Source: Candidatus Kapaibacterium sp. (GTDB taxonomy: Bacteria; Bacteroidota; Ignavibacteria; Kapaibacteriales; UBA2268). Taken from it: a stretch of DNA of 13,406 nucleotides. Positions 1-7,328 of this stretch are shown piece after piece; position 1 is the first letter of the stretch; every line of letters starts with the position of its first letter. Position numbers and translations under genes: made by a program. The stretch covers positions 1-13,406 of the forward strand of contig JAONBD010000036.1 in the NCBI GenBank assembly GCA_028376765.1, given 5' to 3'. The notes beneath the pieces were generated by a model, which did no database searches, was not told the DNA's origin, and saw only the letters and a list, made by a program, of their open reading frames with translations.

Positions 1-775
1 TATATTTGCCTTCAATAAATGTATCAAATAATTCACGTTTAATGATAGCATCCTTACGCATATCACCTTCTTTACGCATTTCCAAAAGGTCATACTCTAT
101 TCCATGTGTATCTAGCCAAGCAATAGTCTTATCTTTATATGTATCATATCTACCTGAGAAAAGTATAATATTAGTACCCAGTTGCTTATAGGTCTTCAAT
201 AGATTAGCTACTGGCTCATTTAACTTATCCTTATCGCATTCTGATGCAATATATGGGTCTCTGCCATTAAGTAGAGATAGAGTGCCGTCAAGGTCGCATA
301 TAATGGCTTTTGGAAGATTCGTATCTTGCACTCTATACTCAAGTTCTTTCTTATAAAACTTATGAGCTAGCTCTCTAATTCTTTTCTTGCCAACTGGCTT
401 TTCACGCTTTGAATCTCTTTCAACACAGACTTCAACTGGAGTATCAATTTCTACAATCTCAACTTTTACATTTTCTTTACTTTCTTTGATATACTCTTGC
501 ACTAGTTGTGAGATTCGAGCTTCATTTTTAGATGATAAATTCAAATCATCTATGATTACGTGCTTACCTTCTTTAAGAGCCTCGATTAACAGTTCATCTC
601 TTAATTTCTTGACAAACTTTTCATTTCCTTTACTGAAATGCCCATTATCAAGCATAGCCCTCAGCTCATCTCTGTTGATTCGCTTATAAGAGTTTGGTTT
701 TTCGTCTATCAATTTCTTAGCGTAAGTTGATTTACCACTTCCGGGTAACCCACGCATTATTATTACTTTTTTCAT
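1..775 (-). CDS. pnk: Polynucleotide 5'-kinase/3'-phosphatase (T4 Pnk/PseT-like), 3' end truncated by window edge; ATG at 775..773
   Basis: The minus-strand translation begins MKKVIIMRGLPGSGKSTYAKK, an N-terminal P-loop kinase matching T4 Pnk GCPGSGKST. A downstream HAD phosphatase motif I, AIICDLDGTLSLLNGRDPY (DxDGT), is present. About 258 aa are visible, against about 301 aa for T4 Pnk. There is no stop before position 1, which explains its absence from the ORF track. The start lies 1 nt after the stop of the upstream RNA ligase gene. Confidence 0.9.
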   Translation of the reverse strand, partial: MKKVIIMRGLPGSGKSTYAKKLIDEKPNSYKRINRDELRAMLDNGHFSKGNEKFVKKLRDELLIEALKEGKHVIIDDLNLSSKNEARISQLVQEYIKESKENVKVEIVEIDTPVEVCVERDSKREKPVGKKRIRELAHKFYKKELEYRVQDTNLPKAIICDLDGTLSLLNGRDPYIASECDKDKLNEPVANLLKTYKQLGTNIILFSGRYDTYKDKTIAWLDTHGIEYDLLEMRKEGDMRKDAIIKRELFDTFIEGKY

Positions 776-2899: not shown

Positions 2900-3026
2900 T
2901 GTGAAAACCTTAAATTTTAATTAATATTTATATTCATTAATAACCAGAATAACTCATTCTCTTCGAGCGGAATCTGATTTTAGTTAACTCAATTACTTAT
3001 TCCTGATATTCTAAAAAAGTTTCAAT

Positions 3027-3038
3027 CTACAATTGTAG
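3027..3038. promoter_or_regulatory. Perfect 12-bp palindrome CTACAATTGTAG (CTACA/TGTAG half-sites) ~128 bp upstream of the SPFH-rnl-pnk operon start
   Basis: The palindrome is read directly from the sequence. The same half-sites occur in the two 21-bp palindromes upstream of the WYL regulator gene. Confidence 0.4.
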
Positions 3039-3209
3039 TAAATTTGATTTTTTCAGAATAGAAATCCTAATTAATTTCAATAACGGTATCCATCATCATC
3101 TGGCTGAAGAGAATGTGCTTTGTCAGAATAAACTGAAAAAGCTTTGTTACCCTAGAATTTATACCAATTTGGTATTCGACAACCATTTTTAAAAGTGGTT
3201 AGCTTTGAG

Positions 3210-3232
3210 TGCTGAATTAACAATTCAGTGCA
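3210..3232. other. Hairpin: 7-bp stem CTGAATT/AATTCAG with 3-nt loop (possibly extended by G-C/G-U pairs), located just downstream (minus-strand sense) of the tRNA-like fragments
   Basis: gtgCTGAATTaacAATTCAGtgc. No clear U-tract follows on either strand, so terminator function is uncertain. Confidence 0.35.
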
Positions 3233-3247
3233 ATACCAATTATGCGA

Positions 3248-3261
3248 CCATGTTTCCATGG
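3248..3261 (-). other. GNRA-type tetraloop hairpin CCATG-GAAA-CATGG immediately 3' of tRNA-like fragment A
   Basis: The minus-strand sequence is ...GTCCTGT CCATGGAAACATGG TCGC. It forms a perfect 5-bp stem with a GAAA loop. Confidence 0.4.
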
Positions 3262-3321
3262 ACAGGACTCGAACCTGCATTTTAATTGTGGCTATTGCTC
3301 TACCAATTGAGCTACCTTATT
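3255..3321 (-). pseudogene. tRNA-like element A: canonical D-arm and T-arm but truncated anticodon region and non-pairing acceptor ends (degenerate/pseudo-tRNA)
   Basis: Minus strand: AATAAGG-TA-GCTC-AATTGGTA-GAGC (a textbook D-arm) ... GCAGG-TTCGAGT-CCTGT (T-arm with G-U closing pair) -CCATGGA. Only 18 nt separate the D-stem from the T-stem, where about 22-23 are needed. The 5' AATAAGG cannot pair with the 3' CCATGGA, so no cloverleaf forms. Confidence 0.4.
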
Positions 3322-3346
3322 AGATAAGGATAGGACTCGAACCTAC
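3260..3346 (-). repeat. Imperfect 19-nt direct repeat G[C/T]AGGTTCGAGTCCT[G/A]TCC (copies at 3260-3278 and 3328-3346), i.e. duplicated tRNA T-arm/acceptor 3' end
   Basis: The two copies differ at 2 of 19 positions and lie 68 bp apart. Duplicated tRNA 3' ends of this kind are typical att-site scars of tRNA-targeting integrative elements, though they could equally come from a tandem tRNA pseudogene array. Confidence 0.45.
3322..3346 (-). other. tRNA 3'-half fragment B: T-arm GTAGG-TTCGAGT-CCTAT plus acceptor 3' strand CCTTATC and discriminator T, abutting element A
   Basis: Minus strand: GTAGGTTCGAGTCCTATCCTTATCT. No matching 5' acceptor, D-arm or anticodon arm could be folded from the 70 nt upstream. 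CCTTATC is complementary to the (A)ATAAGG that begins element A directly downstream. Confidence 0.4.
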
Positions 3347-3541
3347 AACCCATAGCGTGGTTGGATTTGAACTAATCTTGCTGGATATAATCATAGTAGA
3401 ACTATGTTATACAATGGTGATGTAAGAATCACTCAACTAGGCAATAGATTAGACTTTATCCAATATTTTTAAATTCTATTTGATTTGAAAGAACATTTTC
3501 GATTTGTGTCTCGTTTCTTATAATTCAAAGCTAAAGTTCAT

Positions 3542-3562
3542 CTACGCACCATATATGTGTAG
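3542..3562. promoter_or_regulatory. 21-bp imperfect palindrome CTACGCACCATATATGTGTAG, candidate operator (site 1) ~175 bp upstream of WYL regulator gene
   Basis: The ends are CTAC...GTAG and the left arm carries a GC insertion. The site is related to site 2. Confidence 0.35.
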
Positions 3563-3664
3563 CAGAAATTTTATTATTGATAACATTGAATTAAATCTAA
3601 ACTCATTGTATTATATTGAGGTTAGGTCTGAAATTAAATTTTAAAATAAATAACTCGCTTGAAT

Positions 3665-3685
3665 CTACACATATAGAGTGTGTAG
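3665..3685. promoter_or_regulatory. 21-bp palindrome CTACACA-TATAGAG-TGTGTAG, candidate autoregulatory operator (site 2) ~52 bp upstream of WYL regulator ATG
   Basis: The site has perfect 7-bp inverted arms. WYL/BrxR/CapW-family regulators typically bind inverted repeats in their own promoters. Confidence 0.45.
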
Positions 3686-3736
3686 TTAAGTAAATTTTTA
3701 CTAAATTGGGTTAAATAAATATTCAGGATTGAATAA

Positions 3737-4750
3737 ATGCCAGCAAATAAATCAGCACTAATCAGATATAAAGTAATAGATGAATGCCTTAGAAATATTT
3801 ATAAGAAATGGACACTTGCAGATTTAGTAGATGCAGTCTCTGATGCCTTATATGAATATGAAGGCATTCAAGATGGCGTGAGTTACCGCACAATCCAGCA
3901 GGATATTCAAACCATGCGGTCTGATAAGCTGGGTTATAATGCTCCTATTGTTGTATTTGAGCGAAAATATTATAAGTATGAAGACAAGGATTATAGTATT
4001 ACTAATTTACCAATCTCATCTATTGACTTGGATAAGATGAATGAAGCTGTTGGTATTCTGAAGCAGTTTAAAGGGTTTAGTTATTTCTCAGAGCTAACTG
4101 AAATGATTACAAAGCTTGAAAGTAAAGTATATTCTACTAAAAGCGATGGAGCAAGCTTCATACAATTTGAAAAAAATGATTTACTAAAGGGATTGAATTT
4201 CATCAACCCAATACACAAATCAATCATCGAGAGAAAAGCAACCTTAGTTGAATACAAATCTTTCAAAGCTGATAAATCACAGCAGATAATCTTTATACCG
4301 TATTTATTAAAAGAATATAGAAACAGGTGGTTTGTGTTGGGAGTAAATAAAAAAAGCCCTAAAAACTATTACATTCTTGCTCTTGATAGAATATCACAAG
4401 TAGAACCTTTATCTACTGAATTATATATTCATGCAGATGAAGACTTTATCTTAAATTATTTTGATGATGTATTAGGAGTATCAAAAACACCGAGACAAAG
4501 AGCCAGTACAATCGTACTGAAAATTAATAAGTCTAACTATCCATATATTGTTACTAAGCCTTTACATCCAAGTCAGAAGGTACTAAAAGAGATGGATGAT
4601 GGTGTGATATTTGAGATTCAAGTGATTTGGAATTTCGAGCTTGAGCGTGAGATATTAGGTTTTGGTGAAGGAGTGAAAGTGCTTTCTCCTCAACGCTTAC
4701 AGAAGAAAATTAAGCATAGGTTGATAGAATCTTCAAAGCATTATGAATAA
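3737..4750 (+). CDS. WYL-domain transcriptional regulator (N-terminal wHTH, central WYL, C-terminal WCX; BrxR/CapW-like)
   Basis: The 337-aa product has an N-terminal winged-HTH-like region (SALIRYKVIDECLRNIYKKWTLADLVDAV). Its WYL-domain signature is IIFIPYLLKEYRNRWFVLGVNKKSPKNYYILALDRISQVEPL (the LDRI motif). The C-terminal WCX-like segment is IQVIWNFELEREILGFGEGVKVLSPQRLQKKIKHRL. Confidence 0.75.
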   Translation: MPANKSALIRYKVIDECLRNIYKKWTLADLVDAVSDALYEYEGIQDGVSYRTIQQDIQTMRSDKLGYNAPIVVFERKYYKYEDKDYSITNLPISSIDLDKMNEAVGILKQFKGFSYFSELTEMITKLESKVYSTKSDGASFIQFEKNDLLKGLNFINPIHKSIIERKATLVEYKSFKADKSQQIIFIPYLLKEYRNRWFVLGVNKKSPKNYYILALDRISQVEPLSTELYIHADEDFILNYFDDVLGVSKTPRQRASTIVLKINKSNYPYIVTKPLHPSQKVLKEMDDGVIFEIQVIWNFELEREILGFGEGVKVLSPQRLQKKIKHRLIESSKHYE

Positions 4751-4829
4751 TATATTGAAACATTAAATTATTAACCACCGTAAATTAAGCAACTCATTTA
4801 TTTGATTTAACAAAAATTCCTATGTATAT

Positions 4830-7328
4830 ATGCTAAATATAGATTCAAGCCAGAAGAAAAGCATGAAAGTTGGCTATGCTTTATCAATCATATTAACGAT
4901 TATGATGTTCATTACAAGGAGAGGAGTTCTCGAAGCTCAAGATGCTAATATACTAGTCTTCTTTGTAGGGTTGGCAATAACTATAGTTTATATACTAGGC
5001 ATCCAAGCTGACAAAAAGCTGAAGTTTAGATTCTGGAAAACTGATAAAGTCTTCCTGACCATATCATTATCCCATTTCCTGTTACTCTGCTTTATATTAA
5101 ATAATACTATAGAAATATTTGGCTATTTCCCTACATGGGTAATGGTATATTTAGTTTACTTCATTGCATCTTTTCAAGCATTTGGTTTAATTGATAAGCT
5201 CAGTCCAAACCTCAAAAACTTAACTTATTTCTCAATTGGAGCTGGTTTTGTATTCATACTATATTTCGCTATCTATCTTATCCCAACTTATGGAATTGGT
5301 CTAATTGGTTTAATCTTTTTAGGGCTTACATTCAACTTGTTTGTACCACTTATTATAGTGGTTTCTATAATTTCCATTATGGTTAAACTTGAGAAATCTA
5401 AAAAAGAGATGATGTACTTCCTCGCAGGTTTAATTGCACCATTATTTATTACATCATTATTCTTGACCAAATGGAATTCACTTCATACTGATATACATAA
5501 AGCTCATTCATCAATAATTCTGAGACCTGATAATACTCTGCCAACATGGGTATTGTTAAGCCAAGATATTTCAACTGACTCATTTACTTCTGACATTATC
5601 AAAGGTAGATATATCTTTGATACATTTGGTAGAATGTGGGGTGGCAATGGAATGAATAGGAATTTTGATGAACGCAGAACCCATGACCCACTGGTAAATA
5701 TTGGAATCTCTTTATTTGGCGAGCTAAACTTAGATATTGATACCAGAATCAAACTCTTAAAATCTAACTTTAATGCAAGGCATCAGAGCCATAGGAGATT
5801 GTGGTCAGGTAGAGATTTATCAACTATAGATGTACTAAACAATATCAAAGTTTATCCAGATTATAGATTAGCATATACTGAAAAGATAATCACTATTAAA
5901 AATAGTGCTTCATGGGAGAGTAATCAACAAGAATCTGTATATACATTTCATTTACCTGAAGGCTCAGTTGCTACTTCATTATCACTATGGATAGAAGGTA
6001 AGGAAGAAAAATCAAGGTTGACAACCAAGTCAAAAGCTGATAGTGCTTACGTGAGTATTGTTGGTATAGAGCGTAGAGACCCAGCATTAATGCACTGGCA
6101 GGAAGGCAATAGACTCTCAGTTACAGTATTCCCATGTACGCCCAAGGAGAATAGAATCTTTAAAGTTGGGATAACTTCACCACTTGAAAAAGAAGGTGAT
6201 AAACTAACTCTAAACAGTATATACTTTGAAGGACCATTCCTAAAGAATACACTTGAGACTTCTGTGATTGATATAGTATCAGATAATTCCGTTGAAGTTC
6301 TTAATATGCCGAGAGGATTTAATAAAGAAATCGATTCTAAATATATTTATACAGGTGAATACAGAAATGACTGGGAATTATCGCTTAAAGCGACTCCTCT
6401 CTCTTCATCACACTTCTCATTTGGTGAATATAGTTATCATATGGTTGAGCAAAAGTTAGAGTGGGTATCAGAAGATATTCAAAATATTTATTTAGATATG
6501 AATAAGAGCTGGAATGAGTCAGAATTTAATAAAGTAATCCAGCAAGCTAGAGGTAAGAATATCTATGTACATTATGATAAAATGATAAAAGTAGATAACA
6601 CAAATAGCGAGGAAGTATTTGATAAACTAAGCCAAAGAAATTTCAGCCTGTTTCCATTTAATGAAATCCCTAACCCAGATAACTCACTTCTGATTACTAA
6701 GTCTGAAGAGCTTTCACCAAACATCTCTGATATTGAAGATACTAAGTTTTATAAGAACTTAACTTCAGGCTTGCAAAAGCACGAAAGTAAAATCAATATT
6801 TTACAACTGGGTCAGATAAGCTCACCGTATCTAAAGACATTAAAAGAATATGACTTATTTAACTTCTATTCTGGAAGCTCTAGTGATATTACTAAAATAT
6901 TAACTGAAAATATATTCCCTAAAGATGTACTAGATTCAAATAGAATCGATATTGAGATGGCAGATATTAGCATCTTGCGTGATACTAATATTGTTCAATC
7001 TAAAGCACCTGACCATCTACTTCGACTATTTGCTTACTCAAACCTTATGAATAAGTACGGTAATGATTATTTCAATAGTGAAAATAAAGAAGTAGAAGAG
7101 CTAGTAAGTATTGCGAATGAAGCATATATCGTTAGTCCAGTCTCATCTTTGATTGTACTCGAAACTATTAAAGACTATGAGAGATTTGGTATTGATGAGA
7201 ATAAAAATAGCCTAAAAAATGCTTCGATGAAATCATCTGGAGCAGTTCCAGAGCCACATGAATGGGTGATGATTGGGATATTTGGATTATTATTGATAGT
7301 GGTTTATAAGAAGAGGTTCATGGCTTGA
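4830..7328 (+). CDS. Polytopic membrane protein: N-terminal ~7-TM domain (aa ~14-213), central VIT (vault/inter-alpha-trypsin) domain (aa ~340-460), C-terminal PEP-CTERM-like sorting signal; putative exosortase substrate (XrtN-system VIT protein-like)
   Basis: The protein is 832 aa, with hydrophobic helices between roughly residues 14 and 213. The VIT-like segment YTFHLPEGSVATSLSLWIEGKEEKSRLTTKSKADSAYVSIVGIERRDPALMHWQEGNRLSVTVFPCTPKENRIFKVGITSPL matches the pattern F.LP..A.V.....I.G...........A...Y..A..........L.......F...V.N.PP......V...Y...L. The C-terminus GAVPEPHEWVMIGIFGLLLIVVYKKRFMA (nt 7245-7325) combines a PEP motif, a hydrophobic helix and a basic cluster. M12 at 4863 is an alternative start. 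Confidence 0.6.
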   Translation: MLNIDSSQKKSMKVGYALSIILTIMMFITRRGVLEAQDANILVFFVGLAITIVYILGIQADKKLKFRFWKTDKVFLTISLSHFLLLCFILNNTIEIFGYFPTWVMVYLVYFIASFQAFGLIDKLSPNLKNLTYFSIGAGFVFILYFAIYLIPTYGIGLIGLIFLGLTFNLFVPLIIVVSIISIMVKLEKSKKEMMYFLAGLIAPLFITSLFLTKWNSLHTDIHKAHSSIILRPDNTLPTWVLLSQDISTDSFTSDIIKGRYIFDTFGRMWGGNGMNRNFDERRTHDPLVNIGISLFGELNLDIDTRIKLLKSNFNARHQSHRRLWSGRDLSTIDVLNNIKVYPDYRLAYTEKIITIKNSASWESNQQESVYTFHLPEGSVATSLSLWIEGKEEKSRLTTKSKADSAYVSIVGIERRDPALMHWQEGNRLSVTVFPCTPKENRIFKVGITSPLEKEGDKLTLNSIYFEGPFLKNTLETSVIDIVSDNSVEVLNMPRGFNKEIDSKYIYTGEYRNDWELSLKATPLSSSHFSFGEYSYHMVEQKLEWVSEDIQNIYLDMNKSWNESEFNKVIQQARGKNIYVHYDKMIKVDNTNSEEVFDKLSQRNFSLFPFNEIPNPDNSLLITKSEELSPNISDIEDTKFYKNLTSGLQKHESKINILQLGQISSPYLKTLKEYDLFNFYSGSSSDITKILTENIFPKDVLDSNRIDIEMADISILRDTNIVQSKAPDHLLRLFAYSNLMNKYGNDYFNSENKEVEELVSIANEAYIVSPVSSLIVLETIKDYERFGIDENKNSLKNASMKSSGAVPEPHEWVMIGIFGLLLIVVYKKRFMA

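Follow-up and report, generated by a model that had tools for sequence, protein, structure and literature searches.

Two overlapping genes of an exosortase N system

We analysed the contig JAONBD010000036.1 of Candidatus Kapaibacterium sp. over its entire length of 13,406 bp (hereafter the window). The subject of this work is an open reading frame (ORF) on the forward strand at positions 4830-7328, which encodes a protein of 832 amino acids (aa), together with the exosortase gene xrtN that overlaps its 3′ end. The two genes and the elements recognised in their products are the following.

4830..7328, forward strand: gene of the XrtN-system VIT domain protein, presumed to be the sole substrate of the downstream exosortase (TIGR04477)
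4869..5468, forward strand: polytopic membrane domain, aa 14-213, predicted to cross the membrane seven times with the N-terminus inside (hydropathy, Lys/Arg bias, AlphaFold2)
5871..6167, forward strand: VIT domain, aa 348-446 (Pfam PF08487, E-value 1.5e-8; the 35.3 bits exceed the gathering score of 26.5)
6459..6989, forward strand: vWA-like alpha/beta domain, aa about 544-720 (strands alternate with helices in the AlphaFold2 model)
7245..7319, forward strand: PEP-CTERM-like sorting signal, aa 806-830 (VPEP, a 14-residue hydrophobic helix and a KKR cluster)
7325..8644, forward strand: xrtN, encoding the 439-aa exosortase N (328.4 bits with TIGR04476, whose cut-off is 200)
7793..8083, forward strand: catalytic core of XrtN, aa 157-253 (40.2 bits with the exosortase/archaeosortase signature TIGR04178, whose cut-off is 23)
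8222..8641, forward strand: aa about 300-439 of XrtN, a C-terminal domain outside the membrane part that may be EpsI-like (conserved residues)

The 832-aa protein matched the NCBIfam model TIGR04477 "XrtN system VIT domain-containing protein" with an E-value of 1.5e-259 (863.5 bits, cut-off 250), and the alignment spans aa 14-828 of the protein and positions 3-819 of the 822 in the profile. An identical sequence is present in NCBI under the same "XrtN system VIT domain" name, from Candidatus Kapabacteria bacterium. A scan with one genome per GTDB species showed that relatives are encoded in at least 543 species genomes, mostly of Bacteroidota and Chlorobiota, and the carriers include the culturable genera Mucilaginibacter, Pedobacter, Pontibacter and Flammeovirga. 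The profile matches identify the pair as an already catalogued two-gene system, both genes of which have curated models and names. Since the TIGR04477 protein and exosortase N are already correctly named in the public databases, their annotation is left unchanged. What is added here is modest, namely a predicted ectodomain resembling the inter-alpha-inhibitor heavy chains (ITIH), a membrane domain of seven transmembrane (TM) passes that has no relative of solved structure, and the finding that the XrtN motifs are all kept.

An earlier note on this DNA had described the 832-aa protein as a polytopic N-terminus followed by a soluble region with a VIT domain and a PEP-CTERM-like tail, and had considered it an exosortase substrate of unusual architecture. 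The layout was confirmed by the ORF, the hydropathy profile, Pfam and the AlphaFold2 model. The prediction that the protein is a substrate is likewise strengthened, the gene overlapping its 3′ end being that of an exosortase with all catalytic motifs. The architecture is indeed unusual when compared with canonical PEP-CTERM proteins; however, the curated family to which the protein belongs is defined by it, and polytopic PEP-CTERM proteins were noted as an exception in the very paper that defined PEP-CTERM (Haft et al. 2006, PMC1569441).

The product of xrtN was also recognised by the Pfam model Exosortase_EpsH (PF09721) with an E-value of 2.9e-14 (53.5 bits against 25.7). Its TTG start lies within the sequence ...GCTTGA and overlaps the stop of the VIT gene by 4 nt. 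The motifs described for the EpsH/exosortase family, Cys-x-Gly, Asn-x-x-Arg and His-x-x-x-Gly (PMC1569441), occur in XrtN as C163-x-G165, N211-x-x-R214 and H230-x-x-x-G234, and none of these six residues varies among 68 XrtN sequences drawn from the related loci that we fetched. About eight hydrophobic blocks were found, all of them ahead of aa 294 and none after it. The C-terminal domain that follows carries the invariant residues Y332, K334, H344, P346, C349, W350, W386, W387, W401 and R402, and gave a weak, sub-threshold match to Pfam DUF3485, the EpsI family (E-value 0.0079). These last 140 or so residues are thus possibly EpsI-like; fusions of EpsI-like regions to some EpsH homologues have been described (PMC1569441).

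Membrane domain, ectodomain and sorting signal of the VIT protein

The conservation of the protein was followed in an alignment of 60 homologues with 38-77% identity to the window protein, on which an AlphaFold2 model was also built (mean predicted local distance difference test score, pLDDT, 84.7; predicted TM-score, pTM, 0.75). Hydropathy revealed seven hydrophobic blocks at aa 14-213, conserved across the alignment, and another at aa 812-827 just before KKRF. The AlphaFold2 model places N-terminal helices at aa 6-32, 37-62, 73-93, 102-119, 126-149, 151-163 together with 166-186, and 191-231, and these membrane helices are modelled at a pLDDT of about 86-96. A stretch of 55 residues, aa 131-185, is uncharged in every member of the alignment, and because no more than two passes fit into it the total comes to seven. 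Lys and Arg are frequent family-wide at the N-terminus and in the loops 60-73, 121-130 and 185-194, and rare in the loops 30-40 and 91-100, which are acidic or neutral. By the positive-inside rule, this distribution indicates that the N-terminus is cytoplasmic and that the region from TM7 to the last helix lies outside. Seven passes, an N-terminus inside and an ectodomain outside are therefore supported by hydropathy, charge bias and the modelled helices. The proposal that about 200 aa of N-terminal polytopic helices, roughly seven in number, replace a signal peptide agrees well with these data, and the idea that an odd number of helices would place the VIT region outside fits the charge distribution.

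The residues G15, N91, F97, G137, L150 and P173 of the membrane domain are invariant in the 60 sequences. No Pfam family covers this domain, and a sequence search against the PDB chains gave no relative with a solved structure at an E-value of 1 or below; it had indeed been left without a family assignment before. The only curated family with a related membrane part that came up was TIGR04286 (MSEP-CTERM), and that match was weak (E-value 2e-7). A profile of the 7-TM domain run against 1.84 billion representative proteins retrieved 411 clusters. Each of the best 150 was either a member of the family, about 830 aa long, or a fragment of one, and the longer ones that were checked belonged to TIGR04477. 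The presence of the domain in other architectures was rejected on these best 150 clusters, within which it appears to be confined to its own family. Homology between the 7-TM domain of the substrate and the exosortase itself was likewise rejected (hhalign probability 0.2%).

The ectodomain comprises roughly 570 aa. Its VIT domain, which scored above the Pfam gathering score as had been anticipated for the soluble region, is the best-conserved part of the family in the 60 sequences and is all-beta in the AlphaFold2 model. Pfam recognised no other domain in the protein, and gave no match to vWA. In the vWA-like part, D556, N558 and W561 are invariant in the 60 sequences, and the motif D556-x-N558-x-S stands where vWA domains canonically have DxSxS; we infer that it occupies the position of the vWA metal site. 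Foldseek aligned the ectodomain model with ITIH1 (PDB 6FPZ and 6FPY) over about 598 columns with an E-value of 2.7e-14 and a probability of 1.00, at a TM-score of 0.30-0.39 and about 10% identity. As modelled, the ectodomain thus resembles an inter-alpha-inhibitor heavy chain, with a VIT plus vWA-like fold.

The protein ends at residue 832 with the tail VPEPHEW-VMIGIFGLLLIVVY-KKRFMA, in which VPEP occupies positions 806-809, the hydrophobic stretch VMIGIFGLLLIVVY positions 813-826 (14 residues) and KKR positions 827-829. The string had previously been given as VPEPHEW...KKRF; it is present, and the omission of 'VM' and of the final 'MA' is of no consequence. PEP-CTERM was defined by a near-invariant Pro-Glu-Pro, a hydrophobic stretch of 14 residues and a basic region of five residues at the C-terminus (PMC1569441), and this three-part layout is found at the extreme C-terminus of the 832-aa protein, in line with the anchor that had been proposed there. 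P807, E808, P809, E811 and W812 are invariant in the 60 sequences, while the terminal helix itself is variable. In 119 of 120 homologues, the window protein among them, the tail consists of PEP, two residues, an uncharged run of 15-18 residues (which counts W812 together with the hydrophobic helix) and a Lys/Arg cluster, and a pattern kept to this extent is not due to chance. The sole tail without the PEP motif is that of homologue P0031 (…SSSAVPLSDKGLLIILMIG…), in which the helix and the basic cluster are kept; decay of the signal or an error in the sequence may account for it. In the AlphaFold2 model, a disordered linker at aa 794-807 leads to a confident helix at aa 809-831 (pLDDT about 88).

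The comparison of the tail with PEP-CTERM profiles gave a divided result. The last 42 aa aligned with the C-termini of five curated family models, TIGR02921, NF038129, NF038119, NF033947 and NF038118, at E-values of 4e-4 to 0.04, whereas the generic models TIGR02595 and PF07589 were silent. Because these two do not report the tail, the accurate term for it, as judged from its profile matches, is a PEP-CTERM-like variant. A canonical PEP-CTERM protein is also expected to begin with a signal peptide and to cross the membrane nowhere from there to the tail; here, seven passes are found at aa 14-213.

Gene pairing and the other features of the window

We then compared the neighbourhood of the pair in 80 related loci, each from a different species. 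In 74 of them, the VIT gene is followed on its own strand by a homologue of xrtN, usually as the very next gene. These are all the loci with enough downstream DNA (74/74), the other six having 1032 nt of contig or less after the VIT gene. No second ORF with a PEP-type tail was found within about 7 kb of the pair in the 80 loci. Such one-to-one pairing of enzyme and target corresponds to a "dedicated" sorting system in the terms of Haft (PMC3237569; bioRxiv 10.1101/2023.06.07.544157).

The distance between the VIT gene and xrtN is usually under about 400 nt; it reaches about 1.7-2.7 kb in four loci (L022, L026, L063 and L064), which implies an inserted gene. Upstream of the VIT gene, 45-47 of the 80 loci carry on the same strand a multi-TM protein of about 215 aa that belongs to no Pfam family and, after it, a winged-helix (HTH_34) regulator of about 96 aa (e.g., L016:5348-6300 for the two together). 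Roughly half of these loci have the HTH_34 module about 52 nt from the VIT gene, and in the others the gap can be as large as several kb. Another ORF, about 160-175 aa long and of 158 aa in L016, was seen in 18 loci. None of these ORFs occurs in the window or in L001-L004, its closest relatives, and together they may represent an optional regulatory module of the XrtN cassette. A scan of positions 4600-8900 for promoter and terminator consensus sequences yielded no excess over shuffled sequences and no terminator; promoters of the Bacteroidota type lie outside the consensus set that was used, which makes this result uninformative.

The remaining genes of the window were considered as possible partners. 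A functional link of the pair to the RNA ligase, SPFH, WYL regulator, nicotinamide phosphoribosyltransferase (NAMPT) or NMN adenylyltransferase/Nudix genes was rejected, as none of them is conserved near the pair in the 80 loci, and a role in anti-phage defence was set aside because neither protein of the pair gave a match in PADLOC. On the reverse strand, at 9570-12052, two adjacent genes encode a nicotinamide/nicotinate phosphoribosyltransferase with a NAMPT-type N-domain (NF006629, 619 bits) and a protein resembling a fusion of nicotinamide mononucleotide (NMN) adenylyltransferase and Nudix. By their assigned families they form a two-step salvage pair for nicotinamide adenine dinucleotide (NAD), which is not conserved beside the XrtN pair in other loci. 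Two ORFs, at 8731-9552 (reverse strand, 273 aa) and 387-689 (forward strand, 100 aa), matched nothing in Pfam, NCBIfam or PADLOC.

An ORF-free stretch at 2900-3736 contains tRNA-like modules on the reverse strand (3165-3354), in which ARAGORN calls no tRNA. The Rfam model YrlA (Y RNA-like, RF02553) matched 3293-3354 with 47 bits against a gathering score of 69 (E-value 1.5e-9), the match covering the tRNA-like part of the model, and the tRNA model RF00005 matched 3260-3316 at 30.6 bits (a truncated match) and 3165-3254 at 22 bits. The stretch is flanked by genes for an SPFH/Band 7 protein and a T4 RnlA-like RNA ligase on the reverse strand and by a WYL/WCX regulator gene on the forward strand. 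No Ro60/Rsr gene was seen within the window. The region 3165-3354 could encode a Y-RNA-like non-coding RNA linked to a cassette of the RNA-repair type.

Proposed processing and comparison with known systems

Taken together, the genes at 4830-7328 and 7325-8644 very probably constitute a dedicated two-gene exosortase system, made of a substrate and its processing enzyme. The seven helices at its start would insert the substrate into the inner membrane, leaving the N-terminus on the cytoplasmic side and the ITIH-like ectodomain in the periplasm. From there, the flexible linker would lead to VPEP at the outer face of the membrane, and the 14-residue helix would cross the membrane to the KKR cluster on the cytoplasmic side. 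With the 7-TM domain at one end and the C-terminal helix at the other, the ectodomain would thus be tethered at both ends. We propose that the PEP.EW motif, at the outer membrane face, serves as the recognition signal for XrtN and that, by analogy with other exosortases, Cys163 with Arg214 and His230 would cut at or near the PEP motif and remove the C-terminal helix. The acyl-enzyme intermediate might then be resolved by water or by transfer to an acceptor. Since the 7-TM domain stays in place, the product would not be released from the cell, and processing most likely serves to mature or modify a protein that remains in the inner membrane rather than to export it.

Several points weigh against this interpretation. 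A substrate whose polytopic anchor survives cleavage is at odds with the usual model of sorting to the cell surface. TIGR02595 and PF07589, the generic models of PEP-CTERM, left the tail unmatched even at E-values of up to 10, a result to be read with the fact that the HMMER filters may also lose very short, weak matches. The topology is a prediction from hydropathy, charge bias and AlphaFold2 helices. The count of one substrate covers about 7 kb in the 80 loci and the 13.4-kb window. Finally, a literature search on XrtN, exosortase N, MSEP-CTERM, XrtK and the TIGR accessions returned no relevant paper, and no experimental work on any XrtN system was found in the literature searched.

The main alternative is that the substrate and XrtN form a stable membrane complex and no cleavage occurs, the PEP helix being a permanent second anchor docked into XrtN, which would act as a scaffold or chaperone instead of a protease. 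With a permanent 7-TM anchor already present, release does not require the loss of the PEP helix, which is itself confidently modelled (pLDDT about 88), and no cleavage data on XrtN were found in the literature searched. However, the Cys, Arg and His motifs are invariant in the 68 XrtN sequences, which would not be expected of a scaffold, and it is the PEP.EW motif at the predicted cleavage zone that is invariant, whereas the helix is variable. Because the catalytic residues of XrtN are invariant, we consider an uncleaved complex improbable.

The likeness of the ectodomain to ITIH1 raises another possibility, which goes beyond processing. In eukaryotes, the processed C-terminus of the inter-alpha-inhibitor heavy chains is ester-linked to a glycosaminoglycan. 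By analogy, the XrtN pair might be a membrane-resident device for covalent coupling, in which XrtN would transfer the new C-terminus of the ectodomain onto a glycan or lipid acceptor, and the 7-TM domain would either keep the product at the inner membrane or provide the acceptor. The chances of this appear slim. If true, bacteria would have a counterpart of heavy-chain transfer, and the exosortases would gain a defined acceptor chemistry.

It is also conceivable that TM1 is a cleavable signal peptide or that the topology is inverted, so that there is no stable multi-TM domain or the VIT domain is cytoplasmic. The lysines ahead of TM1 resemble an n-region, and the sequence '...LEA/QD' follows TM1. 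Against this stand the six further hydrophobic helices, conserved family-wide, and a loop after TM1 that is not conserved as a peptidase site. Furthermore, G15 within TM1 is invariant and the helix is confidently modelled (pLDDT about 90), which makes a cleaved signal peptide unlikely, and the Lys/Arg-rich loops 60-73 and 185-194 and the C-terminal KKR point to a VIT domain outside. We therefore regard this arrangement as very unlikely. Still less credible is the view that the 7-TM domain is itself an enzyme or transporter (e.g., a glycan or lipid carrier) with which the VIT-vWA ectodomain and its processed C-terminus would cooperate, and the system a surface-polymer machine rather than a sorting device, although the polar or helix-shaping residues N91, P173, Y54, Y145 and a consensus His at 169 are conserved within the membrane or at its edge, the domain is always joined to this ectodomain in the best 150 of the 411 clusters, and the fold relative ITIH1 becomes ester-linked to glycan through its processed C-terminus.

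As a dedicated exosortase system, the XrtN pair would be of value mainly as an experimental model, in which a single enzyme would act on a single neighbouring substrate that stays in the membrane. It would be simpler than systems with many substrates for learning where an exosortase cuts and what is attached to the new C-terminus, still the main question for exosortases in general.

The window genes share with the catalogued TIGR04477/TIGR04476 pair the full-length match, the gene order, the adjacency, the VIT domain and the variant PEP-CTERM tail; no difference was found, and the window pair is a member of that system. The window locus is, however, without the upstream membrane protein and HTH_34 regulator present in 45-47 of the 80 related loci. 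With the canonical PEP-CTERM/XrtA-EpsH system (PMC1569441), the XrtN pair has in common the three-part tail and the exosortase motifs. It differs in that the N-terminal signal peptide is replaced by a 7-TM domain, in that one substrate is encoded beside the enzyme whereas canonical systems have many scattered substrates, and in that generic PEP-CTERM models do not report the substrate tail. Moreover, no exopolysaccharide locus lies nearby, and the taxa are Bacteroidota and Chlorobiota.

The likeness to ITIH1 consists of the fold alignment over about 598 columns and of the VIT domain recognised by Pfam. Unlike the 832-aa protein, ITIH1 is a secreted eukaryotic protein without a membrane domain, and the resemblance is further limited by a TM-score of only 0.30-0.39, the lack of any sequence match in the PDB, a vWA part to which Pfam is silent and a metal-site motif that reads DxNxS.

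Closer relatives were found among the curated PEP-CTERM families. TIGR04286 (MSEP-CTERM), whose members are the named partners of exosortase K in NCBIfam, matched aa 42-224 of the protein (profile positions 177-369, the match of E-value 2e-7 given above) and the VIT region at aa 333-449 (profile positions 465-577). Its profile is longer than that of TIGR04477 by about 100 positions (920 versus 822), the excess preceding the shared membrane region. TIGR02921 ('PEP_integral') matched the last 150 residues including the tail (E-value 4.4e-7). Both scores fall far under the family cut-offs (80 versus 150 for TIGR04286, 28 versus 200 for TIGR02921), and the matches mark the two as sister families of TIGR04477, not as the same family. 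Because the former matches the membrane and VIT regions and the latter the tail end, the plan of a polytopic N-terminus, a VIT domain and a variant PEP-CTERM signal would be common, at least in part, to at least three curated families.

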